Sequence record: OV696614
Strand: one strand, 5' to 3'
DNA from: Escherichia phage Cyrano
Length of the DNA: 64,000 nt
Shown: piece after piece, positions 1 through 58,746 of the stretch
Numbering within the stretch: the stretch's first letter is position 1
Layout of the letters: each line of letters begins with the position of its first letter
Translations under genes and position numbers: made by a program
The notes under the pieces: model-generated
Databases searched by the model: none
What the model was told of the DNA's origin: nothing
What the model saw: only the letters and a program-made list of their open reading frames with translations

Positions 1-134
1 ATATATACGGAAGCAGGCTTAGTAAGACATGCCCAGACCTAATTAAACACCCCAGAAAACAAGTTGGTTAGAAGATGCAGTAAACAAGTTGTTTTAGAGC
101 GCATGGACGCGCTCTGTGTGTTTTAGAGGGATCT

Positions 135-767
135 ATGACGGTCGAAAAAGACGAGGTAAAAACTCGCCTGACACCAGCGGAGTGGGCCGAAGCTGAAGCC
201 AAATGGACGTCAGGCGAATATACACTCTCAAAGCTGGAGGAAGAGTACGGCATTCGTCGTGAAACACTCTCCAGACATTTCAAAAAGCGAGGATTAGAGA
301 AAGGCGCGGACTCTGTTGGGAAGATGGTTCGTGAGTCTCTTAAATCTGACGCAGAGCTTCGCGCTAAAGCCCGTGCGGAAAAGATAGAAGAACGTCGTAC
401 ACGTTATGACGGCTGGGCGTATGCGTTGGGGCAGATGGTGATGGTCGAAGTCACTACGGCCAAACGTGAGGGTAAGCCTTTAGGGGCGATTGAGGATTCT
501 CTCAAGAGCTTACAGAGAGCCAGTAATACCCTTGCAAAATGCTTTGAAGTTTCGTCCAAAGCATTGGGCATGGATCATGCGGAAAATGACGAGGAAGAAA
601 TTCCGAACCTGGTATTTGGTGAGCTTACGCCTTCCCAGGTGGCGAAATTACGTCAGGAAGACGACGAGCCTGAAATCATCGATGACGAATTGCTTGAGAC
701 GTTGGAAGAAGAAGCTCTAAGCGAATTTGATGCGACAGATGATGGAAGTGAAGGGGAGGACGAATAA
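135..767 (+). CDS. putative terminase small subunit
   Basis: 210 aa; HTH-like N-terminal region, acidic C-terminus; stop overlaps start of the large terminase gene (ATAATGG); position immediately upstream of terminase large subunit. Confidence 0.5.
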   Translation: MTVEKDEVKTRLTPAEWAEAEAKWTSGEYTLSKLEEEYGIRRETLSRHFKKRGLEKGADSVGKMVRESLKSDAELRAKARAEKIEERRTRYDGWAYALGQMVMVEVTTAKREGKPLGAIEDSLKSLQRASNTLAKCFEVSSKALGMDHAENDEEEIPNLVFGELTPSQVAKLRQEDDEPEIIDDELLETLEEEALSEFDATDDGSEGEDE

Positions 768-2023
768 TGGCAATCCCGTCCTCGCTCAGTCTTGTGCAAC
801 TGCATTCTGGACAGATGAAAGTCTTCCAGTCTCCGCATCGATTTAAAGTTGTTTGTGCTGGTCGACGCTGGGGAAAATCCCGGTTGTCGATCTCCACTAT
901 TATTCGTGCGGCGGCAAAGGAAAAAAAGCAAAGGGTCTGGTATGTCGCTCCTACTTACCAGATGGCTCGCCAGATTTTGTGGGACGATCTACAGGAAGTT
1001 CTGCCTCGTAAGTGGGTTAGGAAAAAGAACGACACCACGATGACAATCGTGTTGAAGAACGGTTCGGAGATCGCCCTCAAAGGTGCTGATAAGCCTGACA
1101 CTCTGCGCGGCGTAGCGTTGCATTTTGTAGTGCTTGATGAATTTCAAGATATGAAGGCTGACACCTGGTACAAGGTGTTACGACCTACTCTTTCATCGAC
1201 ACGCGGCGGTGCACTGATCATTGGTACGCCAAAAGGCTTCTCGGAATTTCACAAACTGTGGACTATAGGCCAGAACGTAGAGCTGCAAAGAAAGGGACAG
1301 TGGAAGAGCTGGCAGTTTGTAACTGCCGATTCTCCGTTTGTACCTACGGCGGAAATTGAAGCTGCTAAGAACGATATGGACCCGAAATCGTTCGCTCAGG
1401 AGTACCTGGCGAGCTTTGAGAACATGTCCGGGCGCGTTTACTACCCGTTCGATCGTAACGTGCATGTAAAACCGCTTCAGTTCAACCCTCGGTTGCCTAT
1501 ATGGGTAGGGCAGGACTTCAACATTGACCCGATGTCTTCAGTAATTTTGCAACCTCAGCCAAATGGTGAGCTATGGGCAATTGATGAATTGGTGCTCTTT
1601 TCCTCTAACACGGCAGAGGTTTGTGATGAGCTTGAGAGACGCTTCTGGCGCTGGAAATCACAGATAACGGTATTTCCAGATCCGGCAGGTGCTTATCGCC
1701 AACATGCTCGCGGGGAGTCTGACGTCGACATATTCAAAGAGAAGGGATTCTTACGTGTCGATTATTCGAAAAAGCACCCGCCAATTGCGGATCGTGTTAA
1801 TGCTGTTAACCGAATGCTGATGACCGCATCTGGAGATATCCGGCTGTATATCGATCCGAAGTGCAAGCATTTGATTGATTCACTGGAAAAAGTCATCTAC
1901 AAGCCTGGAACACGAGATATGGATAAGACAGGTGGCATTGAGCATAGTGCAGACGCATTGGGCTATCCAGTACATCGTAGGTATCCAGTCAAAAACCGTG
2001 TTATTCTTGGTGGTTCTCGATAG
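767..2023 (+). CDS. terminase large subunit
   Basis: 418 aa; Walker A-like VVCAGRRWGKS and Walker B-like VVLDEFQD; followed by portal gene. Confidence 0.75.
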   Translation: MAIPSSLSLVQLHSGQMKVFQSPHRFKVVCAGRRWGKSRLSISTIIRAAAKEKKQRVWYVAPTYQMARQILWDDLQEVLPRKWVRKKNDTTMTIVLKNGSEIALKGADKPDTLRGVALHFVVLDEFQDMKADTWYKVLRPTLSSTRGGALIIGTPKGFSEFHKLWTIGQNVELQRKGQWKSWQFVTADSPFVPTAEIEAAKNDMDPKSFAQEYLASFENMSGRVYYPFDRNVHVKPLQFNPRLPIWVGQDFNIDPMSSVILQPQPNGELWAIDELVLFSSNTAEVCDELERRFWRWKSQITVFPDPAGAYRQHARGESDVDIFKEKGFLRVDYSKKHPPIADRVNAVNRMLMTASGDIRLYIDPKCKHLIDSLEKVIYKPGTRDMDKTGGIEHSADALGYPVHRRYPVKNRVILGGSR

Positions 2024-2049
2024 GTAAGTAACTATCTAAGGTTATTCAA

Positions 2050-3624
2050 ATGGAATTGAACGACAAACAAATTAAGGATCTGGTGGCGCGACGCCACCCG
2101 GAATACGAAAAGAAAAAAGAACATTGGGACTTCCTCGCCAGCACTTACGCTGGCGGGCGTGGTTGGTTTACAGACAATATCTTTCGTTACTTTAAAGAGG
2201 GAGATCAGGAGTTTAAGGAGCGAGTTGAACGTGCTTATCGCTTCAACCACACTCGTGAGGTGGTAAACCTCATCAACAAATATCTCTTTAAAGAAGACAT
2301 TCATAGAAATATCGAAGAGGCACCAGAGCAGATCCGCAATTTCTGGAAACGTGCGACTCGCCAGAATGCCTCTATTGACTCATTTATGGCCGCTATTGAT
2401 TTGCAGTCGTCTATTTACGGTCGCATATGGGTTGTTGTCGATAGCACGATGAGTGGTGATGTTGAGTCAGTAGCTGACGAGAAAAAGAAAGATGCTCGCG
2501 CCTACGCCTACTGGATTTCACCTCAGCAAATGCTGGATGTGGCATGGGACGACGACGGGAATATGTTGTGGGCGTTAATTGTGGAAGTCGCTCGTGATGA
2601 CGCAGATCCTTTTACTTCTACAGGTCAGGAATACCAACGTTATCGTCTGTGGACACAAAACGAGTGGTATCTGTTCCGTGAGGAAGTGAAGAAGGGCGCT
2701 GGTGGAGCAGGTCGCCGTCAGGCAAAAGTTATTTTAGAGGATAGCGGTGAGCATAATCTCGGCGTAGTTCCTGTGTTTCCTGTTGATTGTATTGGAGAAA
2801 GTGAATCACCGTATTTCAGCCCATCGTTGATCGATGATATCGCTTATCTTGATCGTGCGGTTGCAAACTATCTGTCAAACCTTGATGCCATTATTCAGGA
2901 TCAGACATTTAGCCAGTTGGCTATACCGGTACAGTCGCTTTTACCTGGTGATGAAAACCACACTAAAGTGCTTGAAATGGGCACAAAGCGAGTCTTCACC
3001 TACGATTCTGAAGGTGGAAACCAGCCGTTTTATCTGTCACCAGACCCGAAACAAGCTCAGATGATCATCACTACGATTAAGACGGTGATTAACGAAATCT
3101 ACCATTCAGTTGGTGTAGCTGGTGAGCGAACGAAGCAGGACAACGCACAGGGAATCGATAATTCATCTGGTGCCGCAAAAATGTATGACTTCCAGCGTGT
3201 AAATAGCTTGCTTGTCACAAAAGCAGAGCGTCTGGAAAGGGCTGAACGCCAAATCATGCTACTGGTTGCGAAATGGATGGGGGTAGATCTGGACGAAGAC
3301 CACTCTTTAATTGCATATCCAGAAAGTTTCGATATTCGTGGCCTTACTGATGAATTTTCTGTTGCCGAGAAACTGTCATTACTTCAGGCACCGGACTCTG
3401 TACGTCGTCACCAGATGGAAATGCTTATTGAGAAGATTTTCCCGAACATTACTGAGGCGATGAAAAAGGAATTTGATAAAGATCTCTTGAATTTTCCTCC
3501 AAAAAATGATCTAAATACCCTTGAAAATAAGTCAGTACTTACTTATGATCGTGGTGCAGCCCAAGAAAGCGGGCAAGATCAACCCCGAGGGAATGGGGAC
3601 TCATCTACTCAAGAGAACGAGTGA
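2050..3624 (+). CDS. putative portal protein
   Basis: 524 aa, size and position between terminase and scaffold/capsid genes; RBS AAGG before ATG. Confidence 0.55.
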   Translation: MELNDKQIKDLVARRHPEYEKKKEHWDFLASTYAGGRGWFTDNIFRYFKEGDQEFKERVERAYRFNHTREVVNLINKYLFKEDIHRNIEEAPEQIRNFWKRATRQNASIDSFMAAIDLQSSIYGRIWVVVDSTMSGDVESVADEKKKDARAYAYWISPQQMLDVAWDDDGNMLWALIVEVARDDADPFTSTGQEYQRYRLWTQNEWYLFREEVKKGAGGAGRRQAKVILEDSGEHNLGVVPVFPVDCIGESESPYFSPSLIDDIAYLDRAVANYLSNLDAIIQDQTFSQLAIPVQSLLPGDENHTKVLEMGTKRVFTYDSEGGNQPFYLSPDPKQAQMIITTIKTVINEIYHSVGVAGERTKQDNAQGIDNSSGAAKMYDFQRVNSLLVTKAERLERAERQIMLLVAKWMGVDLDEDHSLIAYPESFDIRGLTDEFSVAEKLSLLQAPDSVRRHQMEMLIEKIFPNITEAMKKEFDKDLLNFPPKNDLNTLENKSVLTYDRGAAQESGQDQPRGNGDSSTQENE

Positions 3625-22417: not shown

Positions 22418-22510
22418 TGGTGGAAAAAAAATTTTATATCGGTAAAAATAGGTAAGTATTTACTTAATGGCGGGCAAGGATAGCCCGCCAAATCAAGGAG
22501 CATATTCAAC

Positions 22511-31134: not shown

Positions 31135-31157
31135 TATTGGTAGTGTCAACAATTATG

Positions 31158-33452: not shown

Positions 33453-33461
33453 AAAATAAGC

Positions 33462-35573: not shown

Positions 35574-35628
35574 TCTCTCAGTGTGTCGTTTTTTACGCAA
35601 AGAATGATAGGTAAGTACAAGATTATTT

Positions 35629-36111: not shown

Positions 36112-37430
36112 AAAAGTTGATCGCACTTAAGCATAAGCTGGACGAAATGAAAGCTATGGGAACCAATGCAAAAAAAGAGGCATTGGCCAACATGGATGAC
36201 TTTGAACAAAGCATGGTTTCATTGATGCTCAACCCTTTCATCCGTTTTGGGGTAAAGAAATACAAAGTGGCAGAGCCGCTTAGTGAGTCCGTCCCAAGTG
36301 ACGAAAAAGCCATTGATGTACTGAATAAGCTGGCCTCTCGCGAGCTGACGGGGAACGCAGCAATAGCAGCTGTTGAGTCTATCGTGGCGTCAATGTGCGC
36401 CGATGGGCAGGACGTGTTCCGTCGTTTCCTCTTAAAAGACCCGAAAGCAGGTGTTGGGATTAGCCTATGCAACAAGGTTTTTGAAAATCCCATTCCGAAA
36501 TTCGAGGTGCAGCTGGCGTCACCGTATAAAGAAAAAGGCGACAAATACCCCTTCAAGCCAAATCCTAAAGCAAAATGGCCGATGATTGGCAGTCTTAAGC
36601 TCGATGGTTTGCGAGTAATTTGCGAGGTTATTGTTGACGAGGAAGAGGTTAACTTCCTTTCTCGTACTGGTAATCCAATCACGTCTCTCGATCACCTAAA
36701 GCCAGCAATGCTCGAATTAGGCAAACTTTCAGGCCACAAACACATCTTCTTCGATGGTGAAGGAACAGCCGGTTCATTTAACCAGTCCGTATCTGCATTG
36801 CGCAAAAAGAACGTGCAGGCAATTGGCGCTATTTATCATGTTTTCGACTTCTTCCTACCGGAATGGCGGGCACAGGCTAAATCCAAAGAGTATGCAAAGA
36901 CAGGTATGAAGCTGAAAGAGCGCCTGGCTATTCTCGTGGCGTTGTTCAAAAACGATCGCAGTGAAGGCTACGCACAAGACATTCACCTGCATCCGTTCTA
37001 TATCATCCATAGCCACGAAGACTTCATCGAACGCTTCATGAAACGCCTGGACGATAACGAAGAAGGGGAGATGGGCAAAGATCCGAACTCTGTTTACGAG
37101 TTTAAACGTACCCGCAGCTGGTGGAAGTTAAAAGACGAAGATTCAGAAGATGGTGAAATTATCGATTTTGAGCCGGGCGATCCGGACTCTGGTTTTGCCA
37201 ACACGCTTGGAAAAATTGTTATTCGCCTTGAAAACGGTGTGATTGTTCGTGCGAGCGGCATTAAGCATAAATATCTGGACGAGATCTGGAACAACAAAGA
37301 GAAGTACCGTGGTCGTATTGTTGAGGTTCATTGTCACGAGAAAACACCGGATGGCAGCTTACGCCACCCCCGACTGAAATGGCCGCGTTGCTTACGCGAT
37401 ACAGAAGATCGAATCGGAGATAAAGAATGA
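36108..37430 (+). CDS. ATP-dependent DNA ligase
   Basis: 440 aa; nucleotidyltransferase motif I KLDGLRV (KxDGxR). Confidence 0.75.
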   Translation: MKKLIALKHKLDEMKAMGTNAKKEALANMDDFEQSMVSLMLNPFIRFGVKKYKVAEPLSESVPSDEKAIDVLNKLASRELTGNAAIAAVESIVASMCADGQDVFRRFLLKDPKAGVGISLCNKVFENPIPKFEVQLASPYKEKGDKYPFKPNPKAKWPMIGSLKLDGLRVICEVIVDEEEVNFLSRTGNPITSLDHLKPAMLELGKLSGHKHIFFDGEGTAGSFNQSVSALRKKNVQAIGAIYHVFDFFLPEWRAQAKSKEYAKTGMKLKERLAILVALFKNDRSEGYAQDIHLHPFYIIHSHEDFIERFMKRLDDNEEGEMGKDPNSVYEFKRTRSWWKLKDEDSEDGEIIDFEPGDPDSGFANTLGKIVIRLENGVIVRASGIKHKYLDEIWNNKEKYRGRIVEVHCHEKTPDGSLRHPRLKWPRCLRDTEDRIGDKE

Positions 37431-37606
37431 TGCTCGGCTGGATGATTGCATTTTTAGCAGTTGGTTTTTTCATAGGTATTGTGGTGATGTCCAGTTGCAT
37501 CAATGACTACATTAAAAGCGGTGTTATAGAAAGACGCGGTCGTATTTATCGCATTGTAGAAATAACCAACACCCTGAAGGAGATTAAGGATGATCGTATT
37601 AAGTAA
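37427..37606 (+). CDS. small single-pass membrane protein (59 aa), paralog of 37802..37954
   Basis: found by hand (below ORF-track cutoff); ATG overlaps ligase stop; TM helix then GRIYRIVEITN motif. Confidence 0.35.
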   Translation: MMLGWMIAFLAVGFFIGIVVMSSCINDYIKSGVIERRGRIYRIVEITNTLKEIKDDRIK

Positions 37607-37805
37607 ACGGGAGAAGGAAACGCTTCATGAAATCAGTAAGTGGCCGGAGTTCCCTGAGTACTGGAAGCCTAAAACGCGAGCTAAGTTAGAGCGTTTAGGG
37701 TTGGTTGCAAACGTTTCTGAAACGAAGTGTTCGGCCAACTACCAGTTAACTGATAAAGGGAAAGTATTGCTACAGCAATTAGTAGAATCAGGAGTGTTAA
37801 AATGA
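37590..37805 (+). CDS. hypothetical small protein
   Basis: 71 aa, overlaps neighbours at both ends. Confidence 0.35.
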   Translation: MIVLSKREKETLHEISKWPEFPEYWKPKTRAKLERLGLVANVSETKCSANYQLTDKGKVLLQQLVESGVLK

Positions 37806-37954
37806 TTCCATACATCTCATTAGCTTTTATGGGTGGCTTCCTTATCGGCTTCGGCATCTGTCGTGATTTAATTAAGCAGGAACTTAAAACCAAAACACTG
37901 TGCATCGGAAAGCGTGTGTATCGGGTAGTTCATGAAACAAAGGTTAGAAAATGA
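37802..37954 (+). CDS. small single-pass membrane protein (50 aa), paralog of 37427..37606
   Basis: found by hand; TM helix then KRVYRVVHETK motif; ATGA overlaps with flanking genes. Confidence 0.35.
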   Translation: MIPYISLAFMGGFLIGFGICRDLIKQELKTKTLCIGKRVYRVVHETKVRK

Positions 37955-38241
37955 GCAATTTAACTTCTTGGGACTGGTGGTTGGCCACCTATTTCTTAGC
38001 GGCCGGAGTCGCATTCGCCTTTTACGTAGGTCAGTTAGTCGTAAAACTGTTGCTGATTAAATTTGCTAGTCATAAACGTATCGATGATGGTCTGTGGCGT
38101 CTTGGCACCCTGGTGGAAACTCGCTACGGGCAACTTAAGGAGAACGAAACCATTACTATCCAGGCGAAACGATTCACTGCCACCATCACAAGAACACCTA
38201 GTCGTAGAGTGGCCTTGATCAAAAAAGTCACAACCGAATAA
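37951..38241 (+). CDS. small membrane protein
   Basis: 96 aa, N-terminal TM helix. Confidence 0.4.
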   Translation: MSNLTSWDWWLATYFLAAGVAFAFYVGQLVVKLLLIKFASHKRIDDGLWRLGTLVETRYGQLKENETITIQAKRFTATITRTPSRRVALIKKVTTE

Positions 38242-39020
38242 AAACATCATGATAAGTATTTACTTACTTATCTTTTATGTATAAGATGACTTTGTTTTCG
38301 TTGAGACGCGACTGTTTGAACTTAAATACAAGTGCAAACGAAGAAGTCTATCTGGCAGTAGCCTAATAAGCCAAACACCAGCGAGGTCAGTTTCCAGCCT
38401 CGTTACCGAAATGGGACACACTGAGCGAGTGTGATTGCAGAACGCAGGAGGGAACATTCATGTTCCCTCCGATGAAGTAACAGAATGGGCGGTTGGTATA
38501 TTTTCAACTCCATATGACTCCCGGATTCTTAGCCACTGACCGCCCATCCTGTTACGTCATTTTGTTCAATTATGTCGTTTATACTGGGTTAAAAAGCGGC
38601 GACGTAGCCCGGCTGGTATGGTTAGCCAGCACACAACGTTGAGGCCATTACATTTTTATCAATTCTAAGGTTCTATTCACAGAGATACCGGCGAGCGTTG
38701 ATATGTAACATGTTGGGCAAACATTCAATCGGAGTAGTGGCCTCAACGTTGTGAAGACGGGATTGTTGTGTAGGTTTAACCACTGTTGCCATTGGTGCCT
38801 GTTTTCACAACAAATGATTCCATACATCACATTGTATAAATTACAAAGTAGGTGCTGTCCTCAGAAACATCATCTACTTAAAGATTTTGCCTTCTACTAT
38901 TGAGCGAAGTCGAAAGCGTCTGGCACTAACGAAAAGTGCAAGTAGCGGTGCGTTTCCTGGCAGAAACTAAACCGTCGCGATTGGCACTGTTGAGTAAAAA
39001 AATACTGGCAGTGCCGAATT

Positions 39021-39095
39021 GATGGTGTAGCTCAGTGGTAGAGCAGTTGGCTGTTAACCAACTGGTCGGTGGTTCGAATCCACCCACCATCGCCA
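39021..39095 (+). tRNA. tRNA-Asn (anticodon GTT)
   Basis: manual fold: acceptor GATGGTG/CACCATC, D-arm GCTC..GAGC, anticodon loop CTGTTAA, T-arm GGTGG-TTCGAAT-CCACC, 3' GCCA. Confidence 0.85.
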
Positions 39096-39097
39096 AT

Positions 39098-39173
39098 GCC
39101 GGTTTAGCTCAGTTGGTAGAGCACCTGCCTTGTAAGCAGGATGTCAGCGGTTCGAATCCGTTAACCGGCACCA
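39098..39173 (+). tRNA. tRNA-Thr (anticodon TGT)
   Basis: manual fold: acceptor GCCGGTT/AACCGGC, anticodon stem CCTGC/GCAGG with loop CTTGTAA, T-loop TTCGAAT, 3' ACCA. Confidence 0.85.
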
Positions 39174-39181
39174 ACACAATT

Positions 39182-39268
39182 GGAGAGTAGAGAGCATGGT
39201 GCTCAAGCGGTCTTGAAAACCGTCCCATTGCGCAAGCGATGATGGTTCGATTCCATTACTCTCCGCCA
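39182..39268 (+). tRNA. tRNA-Ser (anticodon TGA), long variable arm
   Basis: 87 nt; acceptor GGAGAGT/ACTCTCC, anticodon loop CTTGAAA, long extra arm, T-loop TTCGATT, 3' GCCA. Confidence 0.8.
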
Positions 39269-39269
39269 G

Positions 39270-39349
39270 ACACAGCGTTGAGCGGTTTGGCCTTTTAATC
39301 AACTCGATTAAGACTCCGCTAACATAAACCAGACCGCTCAACGCTGTGA
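39270..39349 (+). repeat. long near-perfect inverted repeat immediately downstream of tRNA cluster
   Basis: CACAGCGTTGAGCGGTTTGG ... CCAGACCGCTCAACGCTGTG (19/20 complementary) separated by ~38 nt. Confidence 0.5.
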
Positions 39350-39424
39350 TAGACAATTACGGCAGACGTTCTTAACCATAGCTTGCTAACATCATAGCAA
39401 CACTTTTTTTTCAGCGCAAAATTC

Positions 39425-39447
39425 AAAGGGGCTTCGGCCCCTTTTTT
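39425..39447 (+). terminator. rho-independent terminator
   Basis: AAAGGGGC-ttcg-GCCCC followed by TTTTTT; a second T8 tract lies at 39403-39410. Confidence 0.6.
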
Positions 39448-39490
39448 GCAACTGAAAGAGTCAAGTCTACGAACTTTGTAGGAAGAAATA

Positions 39491-39841
39491 ATGACCAGCA
39501 AAGAGAACACACCACTAAAAGTCACCTCTGAACACATTGAACAACTCATTCAAAGTGAACATTATTTCACTGCATATGATGCCAGCCACGGGGATAACTT
39601 CATCTCTGTTTACAATTCAAAAACAGATATCGACAAAGGTCATGAGTCGTTAAAACTCTTAACGTTCTGCGTTATGGTTCTCAAAAATGGATATACCGTA
39701 ACGGGAAAATCTGCGTGCGTAAGACCAGAAATCTTCAACTTTGATGTTGGTCGCGAGTACGCTCGAAAAGATGCTGTCGATCAAATCTGGCCCCTGGAAG
39801 GCTATCTCCTGAAGCAAAAGTGGCATGAGGCAAAGCAATGA
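39491..39841 (+). CDS. hypothetical protein
   Basis: 116 aa, AGGAAG RBS. Confidence 0.4.
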   Translation: MTSKENTPLKVTSEHIEQLIQSEHYFTAYDASHGDNFISVYNSKTDIDKGHESLKLLTFCVMVLKNGYTVTGKSACVRPEIFNFDVGREYARKDAVDQIWPLEGYLLKQKWHEAKQ

Positions 39842-40083
39842 CGATCACTATCTACGGACGAGATAACTGCTCATACTGCAAACGTGCGGTCGAGCTGGCG
39901 AGGCAACTAAAGGGACATGGCTACGGTGATTATGAGTACATCGACATCACCACTGCCGGTATCGACAAGAAAAAACTAAGTGAAATTGTTGGTAAACCGG
40001 TAGAGACTATCCCCCAGGTGCTGATCGATGGCCAGCCGATTGGCGGATACACAGAGATGGCATCTTTCGTAAGTTTCTTATAA
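39838..40083 (+). CDS. glutaredoxin-like protein (NrdH/Grx family)
   Basis: 81 aa, CSYC redox motif near N-terminus. Confidence 0.7.
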   Translation: MTITIYGRDNCSYCKRAVELARQLKGHGYGDYEYIDITTAGIDKKKLSEIVGKPVETIPQVLIDGQPIGGYTEMASFVSFL

Positions 40084-40120
40084 GTAAAAGCCACATCTTT
40101 GTACATATAGTACATATAAC

Positions 40121-40145
40121 AAAAAAGGCCCATATGGGCCTTTTT
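40121..40145. terminator. bidirectional rho-independent terminator between convergent genes
   Basis: AAAAAA-GGCCCATATGGGCC-TTTTT. Confidence 0.75.
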
Positions 40146-40164
40146 CATAACTTCTAGCTAACCA

Positions 40165-40311
40165 CTACAGTGGCTTAAAGACCACTTCACCCTTGCGTTC
40201 AGCTTCAGCTTTAGCAGTCATGAATCGTTTGATCATTTCGACTTTGCTAGCATGGATAGTTTTAAAATCAATCTTCCCTTTGTTTTGGGTAGTGTTGTGT
40301 TCGTATCGCAT
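40165..40311 (-). CDS. possible small protein (48 aa)
   Basis: found by hand; GGAG RBS 6 nt upstream of ATG; overlaps 3' end of the 184 aa gene by 44 nt, so uncertain. Confidence 0.2.
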   Translation of the reverse strand: MRYEHNTTQNKGKIDFKTIHASKVEMIKRFMTAKAEAERKGEVVFKPL

Positions 40312-40822
40312 AGGAAGCTCCGTCATTTAAATAAGTTAGGCCACGCTCTTGTGTAAATCTCTTCACATATCTCTTGTATGTGGCCATCAGTTCTTCGCGT
40401 TCTGCCGCAAAGAATAAAATCTGTATGCCTTCATTGTCGGCAACTTTGAGCATTAAGTCAACTAAAGTACCGTAAAGGTATTGAAGTTCACCTAAAGTAA
40501 GATTAAAAGACCCTTCGGGTTTGGCAAATACGTTAATTGGCTCTTCCGCTCCAAGAGCGACATTCTGGAGCTGTTCTTGCTGCCTGTCAAGTTGAATCAT
40601 GTCCACAAAACTAACGACAGATACACACAACCCATAAACATCAGCACCTAACATATTATGCATAGTTTCTGCGGCAACAGGATCTAAAGAAGGAGGGCAA
40701 AAGACTAAACGGTATCTAGCCTTACGAGCTTCATTGCCAGAGAAAACAAAGTCTATATCTAAATATGACAGATCACCCGGCAATGAAGCCAAACCAGGTG
40801 TAACCAACTTATGCAAGTGCAT
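40268..40822 (-). CDS. hypothetical protein
   Basis: 184 aa, divergent from recombinase gene across an AT-rich region. Confidence 0.4.
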   Translation of the reverse strand: MHLHKLVTPGLASLPGDLSYLDIDFVFSGNEARKARYRLVFCPPSLDPVAAETMHNMLGADVYGLCVSVVSFVDMIQLDRQQEQLQNVALGAEEPINVFAKPEGSFNLTLGELQYLYGTLVDLMLKVADNEGIQILFFAAEREELMATYKRYVKRFTQERGLTYLNDGASYAIRTQHYPKQRED

Positions 40823-41089
40823 CTGTCTCGAATCCCTCTTTATTAGTATAAGTTGTCTTATTGTACCCTACCAAACGTTTATATGCATTGTTATGTATTA
40901 TTTTGATTTTCAATATTACCTCCTAGAACGAAGGGTAGATTTCAAAAAACGCATCCTCAATGATTCCATACCTACTATGTATGGAATCATTACTGAAAAT
41001 GAGTTACTTTTACTCTTGATCCTATAAGAATCTATGCCTAATATACTGTTTACTTATACAGTGCATCGGCGTAACTCGGTGATTGTCAT

Positions 41090-42193
41090 ATGAAAAATAG
41101 CTTTGACAGAGCACGCGCTGCGGAGAACACCTCAAAAGAGGCGATTGAGTATCTCGAAAGAGCATCTCAAATGCAGGCCGTTATGATCTCCCAGGTCAGC
41201 AATGACATGAGATTCTCGGACGCATTCATGTTATTCACTCGCTTATCTCTGCTGATAACAAGACGTCGGCCAGAGATCGCTGTTCATTGTATTTTGATAC
41301 ATGTTTTGCCGCACATTGCCGATGTAAAAGTAAGTGATATTAATAGGTTCATGGTGAACCAACTGGTCAACCCACTAATACTGGATGGCAAAATTGTTAT
41401 GGGTCGCCGCGTTTTCTCTCTGATGAAGCAGTTCCTCAGCTGGTGCGCCTTCCAGGGGATGATCGACGTGTCACCGTTAAACGATATGTCACTTAACAAA
41501 GTTGCCGGTGGCGCAAAGCCCACACCTCGCGAGCGGAAGCTAACCGACGCAGAGGTATGGGTGTTCTGGAATATATGGGACTACTTCAATGTGTGTGCTG
41601 GTACAAAATGGGCGGCCAGGCTATGTCTTGTATCCGCAAGACGACCTGACGAAGTACTGCGGGCTAAAAAAAGTGAGTTCAACCTCCAGCGTGGGGTTTG
41701 GAATCAAGGCAAGAGAAACAAATCAGCCCGTGAGCATTCTCTGCCTTTAAGCACATTAATGCGCACATGCATTGAAGAGTTATTCGAATATGGTAAAGGC
41801 AGCCAGTGGCTTGTGCCTTCGAATAAAAAAATCGGGAAAGATCTTCCGATGTCTAAAGTGGCAATAGCCCAGGCATTACGCCGTATCCTGGAACGACCAG
41901 AACTGATGGAGCTTGAGCCATTTACACCACGAGATTTGCGTCGTACTGCGCGTAGTTACTTCCCAGCATTAGGCATAAGCCAGGAGGTATCACGTAAAAT
42001 CATGAACCACAGTCTTGAGGGGATAGATCGGGTCTACGACCGGCACGATTATATGGACGAGATGCGAGACGCCTTAGAAAGTTTCTCGACGTACATCGCA
42101 TCAATCGTAGAGCAACCGGATTTAGACGAAATTGACCACAAATTTAAGGGAGATCGTCTATCAACAGAGCTTATTCGTGTAAATTTTTCATAG
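41090..42193 (+). CDS. tyrosine recombinase / integrase family protein
   Basis: 367 aa; C-terminal catalytic region with R..R and H....Y spacing (PRDLRRTARSY ... NHSLEGIDRVYDRH) typical of tyrosine recombinases. Confidence 0.65.
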   Translation: MKNSFDRARAAENTSKEAIEYLERASQMQAVMISQVSNDMRFSDAFMLFTRLSLLITRRRPEIAVHCILIHVLPHIADVKVSDINRFMVNQLVNPLILDGKIVMGRRVFSLMKQFLSWCAFQGMIDVSPLNDMSLNKVAGGAKPTPRERKLTDAEVWVFWNIWDYFNVCAGTKWAARLCLVSARRPDEVLRAKKSEFNLQRGVWNQGKRNKSAREHSLPLSTLMRTCIEELFEYGKGSQWLVPSNKKIGKDLPMSKVAIAQALRRILERPELMELEPFTPRDLRRTARSYFPALGISQEVSRKIMNHSLEGIDRVYDRHDYMDEMRDALESFSTYIASIVEQPDLDEIDHKFKGDRLSTELIRVNFS

Positions 42194-42574
42194 AGACTTT
42201 ATGGCCTCAACAACCTTTTGTGATGCGCCTTTCTCTTTACCGAATCGCTCGTTATATGCAGCAAGAACCTGTTTTTCGTCCTCGTTAAGAGGAGCAGTGC
42301 CTTCTTTGTATAAAAATGCTGCGAGTTCGGGTTGGCGTTCTTCCAGCACCATCATCATAAGACGACTTGGCTCAATGCCCAGTGCCAGCGCCAGCGGACG
42401 AACCTTATCGATAGGCAAAGGAATTTTGCCGCTTTTAATTAAAGAAAGGTTGTTGGCGTTTTTATACCCAATTGTTTTGGCTATCTGGGCCTGGCTCATA
42501 GGTGAGGATTCAATCAACCCTGCGATAAAAGCAGCGTAGCGACTTTCTATAAATTCAATCTTGTTATCAGACAT
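42188..42574 (-). CDS. HTH (XRE-type) transcriptional regulator, candidate prophage repressor
   Basis: 128 aa; HTH MSQAQIAKTIGYKNANNLSLIKSGK; divergent/convergent arrangement near recombinase; palindrome GGTAAGTGCTTACC 32 bp upstream of its start. Confidence 0.6.
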   Translation of the reverse strand: MSDNKIEFIESRYAAFIAGLIESSPMSQAQIAKTIGYKNANNLSLIKSGKIPLPIDKVRPLALALGIEPSRLMMMVLEERQPELAAFLYKEGTAPLNEDEKQVLAAYNERFGKEKGASQKVVEAIKSL

Positions 42575-42605
42575 GGTTACAACCTTTGCGCGTTCAATTC
42601 TCTCT

Positions 42606-42619
42606 GGTAAGTGCTTACC
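42606..42619. promoter_or_regulatory. candidate operator (perfect palindrome GGTAAGTGCTTACC)
   Basis: perfect 14 bp palindrome in the regulator promoter region; related to dispersed GTAAGTA/TACTTAC motifs elsewhere. Confidence 0.45.
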
Positions 42620-42825
42620 GATATTACATCAAAGGTTAGGGTTGTAAAGCTATTATCATTTTTTTCGATAGGCACTTAAAAGACCGGTTAAAGGCCATTG
42701 CACGGAGAAAAATTAGCCCAAAACAGGTAAGAAAATCAACTTGCATATGATATGAATGTATTCAGTATTGATATAAATTTTAGTAGTATTCCTTACCATA
42801 GTATAAGTTAGAATGGATTGATTGA

Positions 42826-43038
42826 ATGAACACCACTATTTCCAGCCTAATCGCTCTTGAGATCGGACACGTACAGAAATTAGTTGATGAGTGTGTAGCT
42901 GACATCCTCACCGATCTACCGAATGAGCAGATTCAGGTTGGTGTGAATGACACAACTGGATTTATATTCGAACTTAACAACAAACGCTTCACGCTTCTCA
43001 ATACCGGCTCCGGGTCTTTAGCCGTCAGAATCTGTTAA
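42826..43038 (+). CDS. hypothetical small protein
   Basis: 70 aa ORF followed by CTGCGCGAA..TTCGCGCAG hairpin. Confidence 0.3.
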   Translation: MNTTISSLIALEIGHVQKLVDECVADILTDLPNEQIQVGVNDTTGFIFELNNKRFTLLNTGSGSLAVRIC

Positions 43039-43136
43039 CCCCTCTTCTCCCTGCGCGAATGGCTTAGTTCCCTGTTCGCGCAGTGCTACATTAAACACAC
43101 TAGTAAATAATTTGTTTTCATAACAAAGGATTAGCC

Positions 43137-45245
43137 ATGTCTAAAAAACGTTCCATCAAAGAGGTTCAGGACTTCCGTGACAGTGTAAAACGAGTAGTCG
43201 CTCTCCTTTCAGGTAAAAACATCCCTGTTGCAGAACGAGGGGACGACGCTTATGTACGCTATAACGATGATGGAGAGCCAATTCTCGTAAACATCCCATC
43301 AATCCCGGATAACGCAACACCGGCATTGATGAATGCTGTGCGCGGATTTCTCGATCATGAGGTTGCTCACATTTTGTTTACCGATATTCGTGTGTCCAAC
43401 AAAATGAGAGAAAAAGGACGCGTTCCTTCCTGGTCGCTATGGAATGCCTTAGAAGACGTGTTCATCGAGCGAAAAATGGGTCAGGTCTTTAACGGAACAA
43501 GACGTAATCTGATGGCAACTCAGCGCCTTATTATCGAAAAAGTCTTTAAACCAAAGGCTTCAGAGGCTATTGCTTATTGTGGCAAAGATCAGCGCGCGCT
43601 TTTTCTAAACTTCTTTCTCTGTCCGGTTGTAAGAGCCTGGGATGGCCAAGCACCGTTCGTAGATTTCATGGATGAATATTGGCCTGTCATTGAGAAACCA
43701 ATTTCATTATTAAAAGAACATGGTATCGATGTGGCCGTGCGTAACATGTCTTGCACCGAGGATTGTGTAAAGGTGGCTGCGACCATAGCTAAGATCCTCA
43801 AAGACACTGAAAGTGAAAGCAACGGTAAGGAGTCAGCTCCGGGAAAAACTTCCGATCCTTCAGACGCTGACCAGACGGATGCCTCTGGAGAAAACAATGA
43901 AGATAACGAAGATCATGAGACACCCTCAGCGTTAGATAATCACAAATCTATCAAATCAGAATCACACAATAAGCACAAACATGATAATAATGACAGTGAT
44001 GATTTAGATAATTCTGAATCATCAGAAACAATATTCGATGATACAGAAAATGATAAAGAGGTATCAGATTCTGATGCTTCTGATAACGCGGCGTCAGAAT
44101 CATTAACCGCTGACCACGAAAAAAGAAAAACGACAGAAGACGGCTCTTCAGATATTCCAACTCCGTCAAAAATGAGTCTGGAAGAGGCTTTAGAGGAGCT
44201 GGATAGCATAGAAGATGAAGTCGGAGGCATGACAGAAGATGCTCTATCCGAAACGATTAAAAGCGAGTTAACAGAAAGCTCGAAAAGCGAATACAGGCCA
44301 TACAATCGCTCATACGACTTCATCGGCTCGATTGATCAGGCAGAAGCCCATATCAAACGGCTTATTAAAACATTCTCCGATATTGATTTAGGAGGATGTC
44401 CAATCAGCCGCTATCGCATCGTTCCTGAAGGCAACCAGCTCTTCGACAAATATATTGAAAAGCATCTTTCGTCAGGTGTTTCGTCGACGCTGGCAAAAGA
44501 CCTGGAGCGAGCAATAGCAAGCAGAAACAGAGTTCAGTTTATACCGGGCCAGCGTCGGGGGCGCATTCATGGTTCTAGTATCTACAGATTAGCAATGAAT
44601 GATGATCGCGTGTTTCGTAAAAAAGAAGAATCTAAAGCCGTTAACGCCTGTGTTCAACAAGTGATTGATTTATCAGGTTCAATGAGGGGTATAACGATAC
44701 AATTGGCTCTTGCAAGTGCATATACCATCGCCGATGCCCTTGATCGAATAAATGTTCCCAACATTATCACCGGCTTCACTACATTTGGTAGTCATATGGC
44801 GGCAGGAGAACTTAAGGCTGTCAAGTATGAGTTCTCTCGCTTTGAATCTTTAATGCTACCTATCATCAAAAATTGGAATGAAAAGGTAAATTCTCGCGAA
44901 GTTCGCTCACGTATGGGGTGCGTAGGCTACACATTCCCACTTCTTAATAACGTGGATGGTGAAAGCATAGCCAGCCTTGCATCGTTATTTTCCGGTCGCA
45001 TGGAGGACAGGAAGATCATGCTTGTTCTGAGCGATGGCGAGCCGTGGGCTGTTGGGAGAGGTTTTGACGCTCATTTGCGTTCGGTTGCGAAGCAAATTGA
45101 AACGCAGACTGACATTGATTTGATGGCAATTGGCATCATGACTGACGCACCGGAGAGATTTTACTCAAATCATGCCCTGGTAACGAGCGTTGATAGTCTT
45201 GGTTCATCTGTAGTTACTGAACTATCTCGTATCATTTTAAAGTGA
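43137..45245 (+). CDS. vWA-domain protein, CobT-like, with acidic low-complexity linker
   Basis: 702 aa; C-terminal von Willebrand A domain with MIDAS motif DLSGSM; central Asp/Glu/Ser-rich segment; paired with AAA+ gene downstream. Confidence 0.7.
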   Translation: MSKKRSIKEVQDFRDSVKRVVALLSGKNIPVAERGDDAYVRYNDDGEPILVNIPSIPDNATPALMNAVRGFLDHEVAHILFTDIRVSNKMREKGRVPSWSLWNALEDVFIERKMGQVFNGTRRNLMATQRLIIEKVFKPKASEAIAYCGKDQRALFLNFFLCPVVRAWDGQAPFVDFMDEYWPVIEKPISLLKEHGIDVAVRNMSCTEDCVKVAATIAKILKDTESESNGKESAPGKTSDPSDADQTDASGENNEDNEDHETPSALDNHKSIKSESHNKHKHDNNDSDDLDNSESSETIFDDTENDKEVSDSDASDNAASESLTADHEKRKTTEDGSSDIPTPSKMSLEEALEELDSIEDEVGGMTEDALSETIKSELTESSKSEYRPYNRSYDFIGSIDQAEAHIKRLIKTFSDIDLGGCPISRYRIVPEGNQLFDKYIEKHLSSGVSSTLAKDLERAIASRNRVQFIPGQRRGRIHGSSIYRLAMNDDRVFRKKEESKAVNACVQQVIDLSGSMRGITIQLALASAYTIADALDRINVPNIITGFTTFGSHMAAGELKAVKYEFSRFESLMLPIIKNWNEKVNSREVRSRMGCVGYTFPLLNNVDGESIASLASLFSGRMEDRKIMLVLSDGEPWAVGRGFDAHLRSVAKQIETQTDIDLMAIGIMTDAPERFYSNHALVTSVDSLGSSVVTELSRIILK

Positions 45246-45340
45246 ACAAAACAGCCTTAACGATAAGTAACCACTTACGATAGATAATGATATATTTATA
45301 TAAGAAGTTGAACGCTCATTAGAAAACAAAGGAAAAACGC

Positions 45341-46576
45341 ATGACTACTACTGCACTGCAAAATGAAAAAAATCCTTCTGATTACCTTGTTTGCAAGTGG
45401 TGCGGAAAATCATTTCACTATTTTAAGTCCCATGTAGCCAATGGTAATTGCGAGGGCATTCCTGAGTCAGTAAAAGATGCCGATCCTGACACCGTACTGA
45501 AAATGTACACAACACAGTTTCCAGATGAGCCAACGCTATCGAAAAAGGCACTTGATGCAATTCAAGCTAAACGTGCCGAGCAAAAAAGCGAAATGGCCAA
45601 ATCATCTGGCGTGACCAGTAGCCCAGGCTACACAGGCACAGTTGAGTACAAGACAGATCTGGTCGCAGCTCACGAACTGCTAAATGTAACGGTGAAAGAA
45701 CTCGGAACAAAACGTGGGACGCCGCTCATGGTTAGCGTCAACGTCAATACGCCGTTTCCAGAGTTCGTTCCAGAAGTGAAGAAGGGCTACGTATATGGCG
45801 ACTTCGAACTGATCAAAGACATTTTCATGATGCTTGAACTTGGCATACCTGGCTATTTGTGGGGTCATGCAGGAACAGGCAAATCGTCATTGCCTACACA
45901 ACTATGTGCTTTGCTCAATCGTCCGTTGATCCGTGCCCAACATACAGCATCAATGGAAGAGGCACATGTTACGGGGCAAATTCTGGCGCGTGATGGCTCT
46001 ACGTATTTCGAGCCTGGCTTGCTTGCGCTCGCAATGAAGCATGGCTGGGTTTACCTCGCGGATGAATACGACTTTGCGTTTCCACAGATTCTTGGCGTGT
46101 ATCAGCCAGTGCTGGAAGGTGAAGCGTTGGTCATCAAAGAGGCGACTCCAGAATGGCGTCGCATTACTCCGCATGAACGGTTTGCTTTCATTGGCACTGG
46201 CAACACGAACGGATCTGGTGATGAAACCGGCTTGTACCAGGGTACAAACATCCAGAACGCCGCGAACTTTTCGCGTTTTGGCATCGTTTCGAATGTGAAA
46301 TACATGAGCAAAGAGGCAGAGATCAACATGTTGATAAATGCCGGTATCGTGGATGAATACGCAGAAAAGATGGTTAAGTTTGCCGGTATCGTTCGCGATG
46401 GATACGAAGAACACCTTATCAGTCAGCCAATTGGCCCTCGTGAACTTTTGTTGTCGGCCAAGATTGGAATGATGCGAGGCGACTTTGTGACAGGTATTGA
46501 GCGTTCTTTCATTAACAAACTCCCTTCAGCTTCTGCACAAGCGGCTCGTGAAGTTGTTCAAAAAATATTTGGTTGA
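45341..46576 (+). CDS. AAA+ ATPase, MoxR/CobS-like
   Basis: 411 aa; Walker A GHAGTGKSS, Walker B VYLADEYD; immediately downstream of vWA gene. Confidence 0.7.
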   Translation: MTTTALQNEKNPSDYLVCKWCGKSFHYFKSHVANGNCEGIPESVKDADPDTVLKMYTTQFPDEPTLSKKALDAIQAKRAEQKSEMAKSSGVTSSPGYTGTVEYKTDLVAAHELLNVTVKELGTKRGTPLMVSVNVNTPFPEFVPEVKKGYVYGDFELIKDIFMMLELGIPGYLWGHAGTGKSSLPTQLCALLNRPLIRAQHTASMEEAHVTGQILARDGSTYFEPGLLALAMKHGWVYLADEYDFAFPQILGVYQPVLEGEALVIKEATPEWRRITPHERFAFIGTGNTNGSGDETGLYQGTNIQNAANFSRFGIVSNVKYMSKEAEINMLINAGIVDEYAEKMVKFAGIVRDGYEEHLISQPIGPRELLLSAKIGMMRGDFVTGIERSFINKLPSASAQAAREVVQKIFG

Positions 46577-53800: not shown

Positions 53801-54796
53801 GTGACCAGTAAGGCGTCTACGGACGCCTTACTTTTTGGAAGGAATGTACCGGTGAATTATCTCTTCGTAGATGGCAATAGCCTGGGTTATTACCACCAAC
53901 AATCTGACAAATTGCACAACGGCGAAATGGAAGTACAGGCTGCTTTCGGCTTTGTTAAGAACGTCCGTCGTTATGCCTCCATCCTCCATGCCCGACCTAT
54001 GATTCTTTGGGATGGATTTAGTGACAAGCGTCGCGACTTTTACCCGGACTACAAGGCAAATCGCGACGACGATCCTGATATGAAAAAGATGAAGGAAGGC
54101 TTTGCTATCCAGAAGCCATACATCCTCAAAATGATGACCGCGCTTGGAGTTACCCAACTCATTGCAAAAGATGCAGAAGCGGATGATCTGGCCGGGCTGC
54201 TGGTATCCCGCATGGCACCGCAGCCAACCGTTGAACACATCTATCTGTTAACAGGCGATAGCGACTGGCTTCAGTTAGTTCGTGAAAACGTAAGCTGGGT
54301 AAGCCTGCGTGAAGACGCCAAAAACAAGCAGGTTAATTTTGAGCAATTTGCGGAGCTGACAGGATTCGCTACTCCTCGCGCATTTTTGGAAGCAAAAGCA
54401 TTACAAGGCGATAAATCGGACAACATTAGCGGTGTTGGTGGCATTGGTGCTGGCGGTGCGAAAGAGCTGCTGCATGAATGGGGAAGTGTCGCAACGATGG
54501 TACGCGGCATCAACGACGGCTCAATCGTGGTTGACAAAGGACGCCATAAGACCGCCTTCAACAAACTAGCGAAGAATGCCTTCAACGAGAAAACAGGCTG
54601 TCGAATGCTCGAAGCGTTCAAGAGAAACATCACGCTAATGAACCTGATTGAGACGAAGTTTCCGCCTACCGAAATCGAAACAATCAAAGGCAATCGTGAC
54701 GTGAAAGCATTCGAGCAACTGTGCTACGAGCTGAATTTCCGTTCGTTCCTTGAAGACCTTGAAGTGTTTGTTCTTCCATTCGAAAGGTATTGCTAA
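53801..54796 (+). CDS. 5'-3' exonuclease / flap endonuclease (T4 RNase H / Pol I N-terminal family)
   Basis: N-terminal LFVDGNSLGYY and downstream acidic clusters typical of FEN family; true start probably GTG 53852 because 53801-53850 overlaps the terminator hairpin. Confidence 0.75.
   Translation: MTSKASTDALLFGRNVPVNYLFVDGNSLGYYHQQSDKLHNGEMEVQAAFGFVKNVRRYASILHARPMILWDGFSDKRRDFYPDYKANRDDDPDMKKMKEGFAIQKPYILKMMTALGVTQLIAKDAEADDLAGLLVSRMAPQPTVEHIYLLTGDSDWLQLVRENVSWVSLREDAKNKQVNFEQFAELTGFATPRAFLEAKALQGDKSDNISGVGGIGAGGAKELLHEWGSVATMVRGINDGSIVVDKGRHKTAFNKLAKNAFNEKTGCRMLEAFKRNITLMNLIETKFPPTEIETIKGNRDVKAFEQLCYELNFRSFLEDLEVFVLPFERYC
53808..53837 (+). terminator. hairpin terminator (GGCGTC family)
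   Basis: TAAGGCGTC-tacg-GACGCCTTA followed by CTTTTTGG. Confidence 0.6.
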
Positions 54797-57408: not shown

Positions 57409-57433
57409 CAGGCGTCCAAACGGACGCCTTTAT
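57409..57433 (+). terminator. hairpin terminator (GGCGTC family)
   Basis: AGGCGTCC-aaac-GGACGCCT followed by TTATTG. Confidence 0.55.
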
Positions 57434-57701: not shown

Positions 57702-58532
57702 ATGAAGAAAGGTTTACTTGCAGTTGCTCTGGCGGCTATTTGCACAATGGGTCTTACTGGCTGCGATCGCGTGGAGCCTGGATACGTTGGCATCAAAGTA
57801 AACAAATTAGGTGAAGACAAAGGGATTGGTGAAGTGGTTGGCGTTGGTCGCCAATGGACAGGTCTTAACACCGAACTTTACGTATTCCCGACCTTCAAAC
57901 AAATGAAGACCTACGACGAGCCGTTCACATTCCAGATGAGTGACGGTACTGCTATTGGTCACAAAATTGGCGTTGCGTATCTGGTTAATCGTGACAAGGT
58001 AACGACGGTGTTCCAGACCTATCGCAAAGGCGTAGACGATATCACCGAATCAGATCTGCGTCAGAAAATTGCCGACTCTCTAAACCGTTTGGCCAGCCGT
58101 ATGACCACTGACTCATTTATCGACGGTGGTAAGGCACAATTGCTGGACAACGCACTGAAAGATATTCAGAAAGAGATGTCTCCGGTTGGTATTGAGGTAC
58201 TGAGCCTGTCATGGGTTGGAAAGCCTGATTACCCAAAAACTGTCATTGAATCTATTAACGCCAAAGTAACGGCTAACCAGCGTACTCTGCAACGTCAGCA
58301 GGAAGTTGAACAACGTAAAGCTGAGGCGAATATGCTACGTGAACAGGCTAATGGTGAAGCTGATGCTATCCGTGCTCGTGCGCAAGCAGAAGCAGACGCC
58401 ATTCGTCTGCGCGGTGAAGCTCTGCGTCAAAACCCGAACGTTATGGAACTGGAAGCCATCAATAAATGGAATGGCCAGTTACCGCAGTACATGACTCAAG
58501 GGGCTAACACTCCTTTCATTACAGTGAAATAA
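57702..58532 (+). CDS. SPFH/band-7 (prohibitin/HflK-like) lipoprotein
   Basis: 276 aa; lipobox LTGC; SPFH-like core and C-terminal Ala/Glu/Arg-rich coiled coil (EADAIRARAQAEADAIRLRGEAL). Confidence 0.65.
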   Translation: MKKGLLAVALAAICTMGLTGCDRVEPGYVGIKVNKLGEDKGIGEVVGVGRQWTGLNTELYVFPTFKQMKTYDEPFTFQMSDGTAIGHKIGVAYLVNRDKVTTVFQTYRKGVDDITESDLRQKIADSLNRLASRMTTDSFIDGGKAQLLDNALKDIQKEMSPVGIEVLSLSWVGKPDYPKTVIESINAKVTANQRTLQRQQEVEQRKAEANMLREQANGEADAIRARAQAEADAIRLRGEALRQNPNVMELEAINKWNGQLPQYMTQGANTPFITVK

Positions 58533-58547
58533 CTCCCCTTAAAAGTT

Positions 58548-58574
58548 CAGGCGTCCAGTTGGACGCCTTTTTTA
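58548..58574 (+). terminator. hairpin terminator (GGCGTC family)
   Basis: AGGCGTCC-agtt-GGACGCC followed by TTTTTTA. Confidence 0.7.
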
Positions 58575-58746
58575 TCGCAATTATCTTATTAAGAAAACAA
58601 TTTGTTTAAAGGGTTAAGAAAATATAACAGCTATTAAGAAACTCTACGATGCCGCAAACGCGGCTCTGGATGTTATTGATGATGAAGTATCAAAAGGCTT
58701 TCCTGAACCTGATTGGGCGCATCAGCTACGAAACGCTATCGCCGAA

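Follow-up and report, generated by a model that had tools for sequence, protein, structure and literature searches.

Short inverted repeats of the form AAACAA-N-TTGTTT stand ahead of several operons of the Escherichia phage-plasmid Cyrano (sequence record OV696614), which raises the question of what function these dispersed sites fulfil and which protein recognizes them. The analyzed stretch (64,000 nucleotides (nt), referred to as the window) represents bases 1-64000 of the SSU5-like element Cyrano/pLF82 of E. coli LF82, and its open reading frame (ORF) coordinates are identical to those in PMC9928086 S1 Table. The window is 98% identical to 'Escherichia phage CMS-2020a' and 81% to Salmonella phage SSU5. 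With a probability somewhat above even, the palindromes are proposed to act as double-stranded DNA operators for a single global repressor in the plasmid state, serving approximately 17 transcription units. A literature search returned no paper describing the AAACAA-N-TTGTTT motif.

Distribution of the palindrome in the window and in the complete element

The consensus AAACAA-N-TTGTTT, also written in duplex form as AGAAAACAAGTTGTTT, is a 13-bp palindrome of 6-1-6 format. Sites were defined as matches to AAACAANTTGTTT with at most one mismatch, and dinucleotide shuffles served as the null model. Six sites were found in the window, all located just upstream of plus-strand genes, namely terS, parA, the DnaB-like helicase gene, the vWA/CobT-like gene and the DUF7238 gene block:

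57-69, plus strand: palindrome AAACAAGTTGGTT with one mismatch, AGA before it; first of the tandem terS pair, 25 bp upstream of the second
82-94, plus strand: perfect palindrome AAACAAGTTGTTT; second of the terS pair
29259-29271, plus strand: perfect palindrome AAACAAGTTGTTT, AGA before it; ends 35 nt ahead of the parA ATG; candidate operator of the parA/ParG-like operon
32080-32092, plus strand: perfect palindrome GAAAACAATTTGTTTAAA, followed by AACAAAGGA; ends 19 nt ahead of the dnaB-like helicase ATG (32112)
43105-43117, plus strand: palindrome AAATAATTTGTTT with one mismatch, followed by AACAAAGGA; ends 19 nt ahead of the vWA/CobT-like ATG (43137)
58595-58607, plus strand: perfect palindrome GAAAACAATTTGTTTAAA, directly after the SPFH-gene terminator; heads the DUF7238 gene block

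The original prediction, made from the letters of the window, had listed the last five of these copies, and all five are present at their places. The copy at 57-69 was overlooked, and the list comprised five of approximately 17 copies in the element, most of which lie outside the window. That the copies form one family heading transcription units was confirmed, and a single trans-acting factor at many loci, as suggested at that time, is the natural reading. The parA copy also lies where the operator of a partition operon had been expected.

The six sites in the window compare with 0.46 +/- 0.63 expected, and a count of six was reached in 0 of 100 shuffles. For the 15-mer including the leading GA, 11 strand-matches were counted in the window versus 1.18 expected. 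The whole-element scan that had been suggested together with the prediction was carried out on a composite of 109.8 kb, consisting of the window and the remainder of the 98% identical plasmid p1444_3. It yielded 17 sites versus 0.61 expected (shuffle maximum 3), and all 17 are intergenic, as read from their coordinates against the ORF list and the PGAP annotation. The original prediction had assumed an AT-rich background and had named chance occurrence as the outcome that would speak against it. The premise was wrong, the G+C content of the window being 43-51% along its length, and chance matches in an AT-rich background are ruled out by this composition together with the shuffle counts for window and composite.

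Conservation in related elements

Related elements carry the motif in similar numbers, with 20 sites in SSU5 and 17 in the Klebsiella plasmid pJN2-26. Orthologous loci with sites comprise terS, parA, dnaB, vWA, nrdB, a TerB-like gene and an array of small ORFs; at these loci the 13-mer is kept and the flanks have diverged, and this retention is taken to be purifying selection on the motif. The copy at 57-69 is kept in SSU5 and in the Yersinia pestis plasmid pMT1, and the copies at the vWA locus are perfect in SSU5, the Klebsiella relative and pMT1. The site ahead of parA is shared by SSU5, the Klebsiella relative and two distant relatives, the latter two having a ParG-like protein of 48-62% identity. 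Moreover, orthologous dnaB sites with kept palindromes and diverged flanks were found in SSU5, the Klebsiella relative, L043 and L045, and two relatives with ParA and DnaB proteins only 66-80% identical have kept both the parA and the dnaB site. A more distant clade features many copies with the same motif and architecture, next to neighbouring proteins of 33-74% identity. Plasmid pMT1 has lost parA and the gene for the ParG-like protein and encodes P1-type ParAB instead; four good sites are kept. Among IMG/VR contigs, those with several copies were almost all SSU5-like.

The Acinetobacter baumannii plasmid NZ_CP035046.1 (L221-L223) represents a sister lineage with the same gene order, in which the AAACAA motif is absent. 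Approximately 27 intergenic copies of another palindrome, (TC)AGTCAGTACTGACT(GA), were detected there, five of which abut a TATACT -10-like hexamer and therefore would lie upstream of the start. Since this plasmid carries its own palindrome, the dispersed promoter-linked palindrome appears to be a conserved design of the superfamily with a lineage-specific sequence. The comparison supports the interpretation of the palindromes as operators and does not single out the factor.

Position relative to predicted promoters

Alignment on the palindrome revealed that the full motif is asymmetric: A-T-A-A at -15 to -12 is followed by 8 nt and by AGA directly 5' of AAACAA-N-TTGTTT. The T at -14 is invariant in 17 of 17 E. 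coli sites. A conserved asymmetric stretch of approximately 29 nt (ATAA-N8-AGAAAACAANTTGTTT) occurs at a fixed register ahead of many genes.

Two classes were distinguished among 54 sites from three genomes, for which all promoter positions are predicted. In class A (36 of 54), motif and downstream gene point the same way, and the palindrome follows 13 bp after the end of a predicted extended -10 element. The -10-like hexamer starts at -19 (13 sites), -20 (4) or -18 (2), accounting for 19 of 21 cases with a recognisable hexamer. These elements usually include the extended TG, e.g., TGcGATAAT, TGgTATTAT and TGgGAAAAT, and the promoters often follow right after the T-tract of the previous unit's terminator. 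A Shine-Dalgarno sequence and a start codon are located 11-40 nt past the palindrome. Class B (16 of 54) features the same extended motif, flipped and placed upstream of the same type of predicted promoter, with the -10 hexamer starting at +32 in 9 of 9 cases. Furthermore, several promoters possess one class B and one class A site with centres 51 bp apart, corresponding to approximately five helical turns.

The distance between palindrome centre and start codon is loose (15-47 nt for 29 of 35 sites, beyond this range for the others). The position of the sites is locked to the -10 element and therefore points to control of expression. A dispersed operator family was thus matched in two respects, namely a fixed register at core elements of predicted promoters and motif copies that are far above chance and all intergenic at operon heads.

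A proposed repressor of the plasmid state

The two arms form an exact dyad in which C3 and G9 also mirror each other, and mismatches are mirror-symmetric between the arms. Folded as RNA, the motif hairpin reaches -0.7 kcal/mol (z ~ -0.9) and the leaders are without significant structure; a stable RNA hairpin is ruled out by this fold. Recognition of duplex DNA by a symmetric protein is favoured because of the exact dyad, the mirror-symmetric mismatches, the occurrence of sites in either orientation and both before and after the predicted start, and the fixed register to the -10 element.

If transcription starts approximately 7 nt after the -10 element, class A sites would occupy about +7 to +19 (centre about +13, like lac O1), and class B sites about -44 to -32 (centre about -38), over the -35 region. 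A bound dimer or dimer-of-dimers would block binding or escape of RNA polymerase, and paired sites would be bound cooperatively. The repressor would be present in the plasmid (lysogenic) state, in which the motif-headed units would be silent.

Transcriptome data of LF82 lysogens are consistent with such a state. At a median of 9.8, values of 7.1 for terS, 7.8 for vWA, 5.7 for CYRAN_58 (the gene downstream of the 58595-58607 palindrome), 12.9 for nrdB and 21 for dnaB were recorded, and the small-ORF units read 7-25 (RNA-seq, PMC9928086 S1 Table), though several of them have near-consensus extended -10 promoters. The parA operon is the only motif-headed unit that is on, with 50 for parA and 89 for the ParG-like gene (PMC9928086). 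With parA (50) excepted, the units thus appear repressed in lysogens, at 5.7-25 versus the median of 9.8, as expected of dispersed operators. This silence fits a repressor present in the plasmid state, without being specific for it.

Several points weigh against the proposed DNA operators. All promoter positions are predictions, and a scan for two-hexamer sigma-70 promoters called nothing at any site. A good -10 element at the expected register was not found at the terS, parA, dnaB, nrdB and TerB-like sites, where the palindrome may lie inside a longer transcript. The element encodes an FljA-family RNA-binding fold, and class A sites lie in predicted 5' leaders beside the ribosome-binding site. 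Silence in lysogens is common to most phage genes and is therefore weak evidence for this operator. Moreover, the Acinetobacter relative has no copy of its own motif directly upstream of parA. Regarding the binding factor, the ribbon-helix-helix signature of the ParG-like protein is a by-eye reading, and the fold is putative. Finally, pMT1 is without the ParG-like gene and still has four good sites; the loss could have happened at any time, so this is not decisive.

Candidate binding proteins

The best candidate for the binding factor, though a tentative one, is the small protein encoded together with parA:

29307-29975, plus strand: parA, encoding a small ParA-type ATPase of 222 aa
29975-30334, plus strand: gene for the ParG-like protein of 119 aa (CYRAN_29), the preferred candidate

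Conservation of the ParG-like protein extends to every element with the parA site. The protein sequence comprises a disordered basic N-terminal tail, then IKSRTMSLEDEY and later FTRSDVIRAAI, and the segments IKSRTMS and FTRSDVIRAAI do not vary at identities of 47-100%. A half-site spacing of 7 bp would suit ribbon-helix-helix dimers, as in the omega heptad and the MetJ type, and the 6-1-6 format is also that of MatP/matS. The protein would act as autoregulator of parA and as global repressor, in the manner of omega on pSM19035. A scan of IMG/VR for ParG-like relatives returned close relatives only and did not reach the distant clade. In the Acinetobacter plasmid NZ_CP035046.1, tblastn detected neither a ParG-like nor an FljA-like homologue; a diverged homologue of the XRE-type protein is present, and a different small protein of strand-helix-helix appearance is encoded after parA.

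Helix-turn-helix (HTH) regulators had also been suggested as binders. The XRE-type HTH protein CYRAN_45 (42188-42574) was named 'putative repressor' and has a lysogen expression value of 96 (PMC9928086). Its recognition helix is conserved, and it travels with the integrase in 864 plasmids; the gene is not present in SSU5, which may be a lytic derivative. As the factor recognizing AAACAA-N-TTGTTT it is unlikely, its own upstream region featuring a perfect different palindrome, GGTAAGTGCTTACC, and no AAACAA site, so that this part of the original prediction was not upheld. A second dispersed palindrome family, ATAGGTAAGnnCTTACCTAT, of which GGTAAGTGCTTACC is a perfect copy, comprises approximately 11 sites in the element:

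22451-22464, 26660-26673, 34733-34746 and 42606-42619: ATAGGTAAGnnCTTACCTAT sites in the window
67886, 72593, 77432, 79647, 84626 and 106553 (composite positions): ATAGGTAAGnnCTTACCTAT sites outside the window, about seven more in number

These sites front the tail-fibre, holin/lysis, CYRAN_34, nrdA, thyX, methylase and helicase/ParB-like units. They probably represent the operators of the XRE-type repressor and the family which the original prediction had counted as the first.

Other proteins of the element were rejected. The pair of ParB_N proteins was considered as an analogue of KorB, and the 6-1-6 format of the motif matches, but both genes are at or below background in lysogens and hence silent (5.0 and 9.5 versus the median of 9.8, PMC9928086 S1 Table). 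In Pfam searches, only the N-terminal domain and no HTH was found in these proteins. The gene for an S24/UmuD-like protein is absent from SSU5, the Klebsiella relative and pMT1.

Alternative explanations

An explanation at the RNA level, considered improbable, assumes that AGAAAACAANUUGUUU in mRNA 5' leaders, shortly before the Shine-Dalgarno sequence, is read by the FljA-like protein CYRAN_114, which would block translation and destabilise the message in the way of Salmonella FljA with fliC mRNA. FljA is known to bind the fliC mRNA leader, and the element indeed encodes a full-length PF03614 protein (E 2e-79; outside the window, p1444_3 26026-26547), 40% identical to chromosomal FljA and with conserved counterparts in SSU5, the Klebsiella relative and pMT1. 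Two tandem Sm/Hfq-like barrels and no HTH are predicted for it, at good confidence. If the predicted starts are right, class A sites are situated in the transcribed leader; the flipped class B sites (16 of 54), approximately one third of all, are upstream of the predicted start, which an mRNA operator does not explain. Likewise, the exact dyad is left unexplained by single-strand recognition, the hairpin being negligible, and spacing is fixed to the -10 element and not to the start codon. In the distant clade the motif is unchanged, yet the FljA-like protein there shows only 36% identity and is without the AEVWPRDY segment, which is invariant elsewhere. No motif was found in front of the FljA-like gene. 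A resemblance to the fliC leader is present in CATCAAGTTGTAA, but it scores -3 with the position weight matrix versus at least 17 for true sites and is not significant (p ~0.09), so that the fliC-leader link to FljA was dropped. The wider scenario, in which about 20 operons of an SSU5-type phage-plasmid would be controlled post-transcriptionally by an Hfq-fold FljA-like repressor and Salmonella FljA, a repressor of flagellar phase variation, would be a domesticated copy of it, is regarded as quite improbable.

The original prediction had also raised dispersed centromere-like sites. In this case, the ParG-like adaptor for the ParA ATPase would bind the palindromes as in N15, any effect on transcription being secondary. 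N15 centromeres are dispersed single palindromes, and omega sites double as centromeres. A site upstream of a small parA and a small adaptor gene, as in type Ib systems, is present (29259-29271, ahead of 29307-29975 and 29975-30334), and no repeat array for a conventional centromere was found within 28700-31400. Type Ib systems, however, normally need clustered repeat arrays, whereas a single palindrome was found at parA and at most two copies at any locus. Moreover, at each locus the palindromes keep to promoter elements and gene starts, their clustering within the small early-type ORF array follows no obvious partition logic, and pMT1 swapped its partition system for P1-type ParAB, yet kept four sites. 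A centromere function as the main role is therefore judged unlikely. An equally doubtful candidate is a host transcription factor of the Enterobacterales recruited at promoters of the element. It would agree with a motif that is invariant across E. coli, Salmonella, Klebsiella, Yersinia and the distant enterobacterial clade and replaced in the Acinetobacter lineage; however, approximately 20 operators would also freeze the specificity of an element-encoded factor, so that invariance does not require a host protein. To our knowledge, no E. coli regulator has this consensus, and the KdgR and PurR boxes are similar but differ in spacing. The conserved asymmetric stretch of approximately 29 nt at fixed register could, in turn, belong to a specialised promoter for an RNA polymerase or sigma factor that the phage modifies or encodes. 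This is very improbable: no RNA polymerase or sigma-like gene was detected in the annotation or in Pfam scans, and the core is a perfect dyad, located upstream of ordinary extended -10 elements in some cases and downstream in others.

Comparison with known regulons

As DNA operators of one repressor, the palindromes would constitute a further case of the regulons known from P1 C1, RK2 KorA/KorB and pSM19035 omega. In P1, likewise a plasmid prophage, one regulator (C1, more than 14 operators) acts on operators spread over approximately 100 kb that overlap the promoters of separate operons, and lytic and auxiliary functions are thereby shut down as long as P1 is a plasmid. The P1 operator is an asymmetric 17-mer, ATTGCTCTAATAAATTT, as opposed to the 6-1-6 dyad of Cyrano; moreover, no C1 homologue was seen in the Cyrano element, and a second dispersed palindrome family is carried. 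In RK2/RP4, where KorB works alongside KorA, the OB sites of KorB, TTTAGCSGCTAAA, are also 13-bp 6-1-6 palindromes, about a dozen per plasmid, through which plasmid operons are repressed globally in connection with the partition apparatus. Some of them are centred about 39-40 bp upstream of the start, compared with about -38 predicted for class B, but in Cyrano most sites follow the -10 element. KorB belongs to the ParB family, whereas both ParB_N proteins of Cyrano are silent in lysogens and without a Pfam HTH.

The omega protein of pSM19035 and ParG of TP228 are small partners of a small ParA that act on direct or inverted short repeats with 7-bp spacing to repress the operon encoding them as well as other promoters. 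They need arrays of 7-10 repeats at few loci, whereas Cyrano has single or paired palindromes at approximately 17 loci, and the ribbon-helix-helix fold of its ParG-like protein is putative. Like the Cyrano sites, the sopC sites of N15 are single palindromes dispersed through a phage-plasmid genome, close to genes for lysis and replication; N15, however, possesses a type Ia SopAB system with four sites only, and promoter-locked geometry is not described for it. Salmonella FljA on the fliC leader parallels Cyrano in the full-length FljA-family protein and in class A sites within the predicted leader by the ribosome-binding site. FljA has one target, its match to the Cyrano motif is not significant, and the dyad as well as flipped and promoter-upstream sites are unexpected for an mRNA operator.

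Occurrence and relevance of the proposed regulon

SSU5-like phage-plasmids are very common. With 18 kb of the window (28000-46000) as query, megablast produced matches in 790 of 5426 complete E. coli genomes; in 174 of these, most of the query was covered. Among the relatives are pHCM2 from S. Typhi, pMT1 from Y. pestis and plasmids of Klebsiella, and resistance genes, e.g., dfrA51, are present on some of them. How these elements are silenced as plasmids is essentially unstudied, and the motif provides a ready-made map of one regulon with approximately 17 promoters and exact operator positions. Two palindrome families imply that at least two global regulators share out the promoters of the genome. 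Furthermore, the lysogeny/induction circuit becomes directly testable, with three named candidate proteins, and the motif-headed promoters represent a compact set of repressible promoters for use as tools.

Features of individual loci

Additional features were noted at the sites in the window:

95-124, plus strand: terminator-like hairpin from a terminator scan, stem AGAGCGC/GCGCTCT followed by TGTGTTTT (stem-loop 95-116 and T-rich tail)
43084-43092, plus strand: extended -10-like element TGcTACATT, 12 nt upstream of the palindrome at 43105-43117 (TACATT, TG at offset -18)

The hairpin at 95-124 is placed between the palindrome pair and the terS start codon (135). Across Cyrano, SSU5, pJN2-26 and pMT1 its stem is conserved and its loop variable, a pattern which suggests attenuation or antitermination control of the late operon. 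In pJN2-26 (L007 38628-38640), a single terS palindrome was found, compared with two in Cyrano, SSU5 and pMT1; the difference is an exact 25-bp deletion between the copies, as expected of recombination between repeats.

The sequence AACAAAGGA follows the palindrome at the dnaB (32093-32108), vWA (43118-43133) and TerB-like (L003 5196-5216) sites. Two partners are available to the right arm, TTTGTTT, namely the left arm and this A-rich stretch beside the Shine-Dalgarno sequence; the second pairing appeared as an alternative fold in the RNA prediction. In NZ_CP035046.1, an Hfq gene is located just upstream of the DnaB-like helicase gene.

The SPFH-gene terminator ahead of the 58595-58607 palindrome consists of a hairpin at 58549-58568 and a T run. 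It belongs to a set of intrinsic terminators (30335-30366, 53810-53830, 57410-57430 and 58549-58568) with the common stem AGGCGTCC-N4-GGACGCCT and a T run. In relatives, many extended -10 promoters are preceded by the same GGACGCC-T-tract, and terminator, promoter and operator therefore seem to form one compact repeated cassette. The DUF7238 start codon (58624-58626) reads ATG in p1444_3 and ATA in Cyrano, and in the LF82 annotation the gene begins at 58633. In Cyrano, the gene that comes first after this palindrome may be poorly translated or inactivated.

Non-SSU5 matches in IMG/VR were inspected for guilt by association and proved to be AT-rich chance matches, except for one unexplained repeat in contig L127. 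This unrelated viral contig (AT-rich, 30% G+C) carries two copies of GGGAAAATAACC-N-AAGAAAACAnTTTGTTT with identical flanks, at 160-172 and 3152-3164. The repeat closely resembles the SSU5 class A cassette GGGAAAATAACACCAACAAGAAAACAATTTGTTT and may represent chance or a related cassette in another phage group.

Finally, CYRAN_43 (40268-40822, minus strand) encodes a protein of 184 aa with no Pfam match and no counterpart at this locus in the SSU5 annotation. It is by far the most highly expressed gene of the element in LF82 lysogens, at 7084 versus the median of 9.8 (PMC9928086 S1 Table). The element moreover carries host-like apbC (mrp) and metG (methionyl-tRNA synthetase) genes (CYRAN_99 and CYRAN_100; p1444_3 L003 14395-17686), of which apbC is expressed in LF82 lysogens at 92 (PMC9928086 S1 Table).

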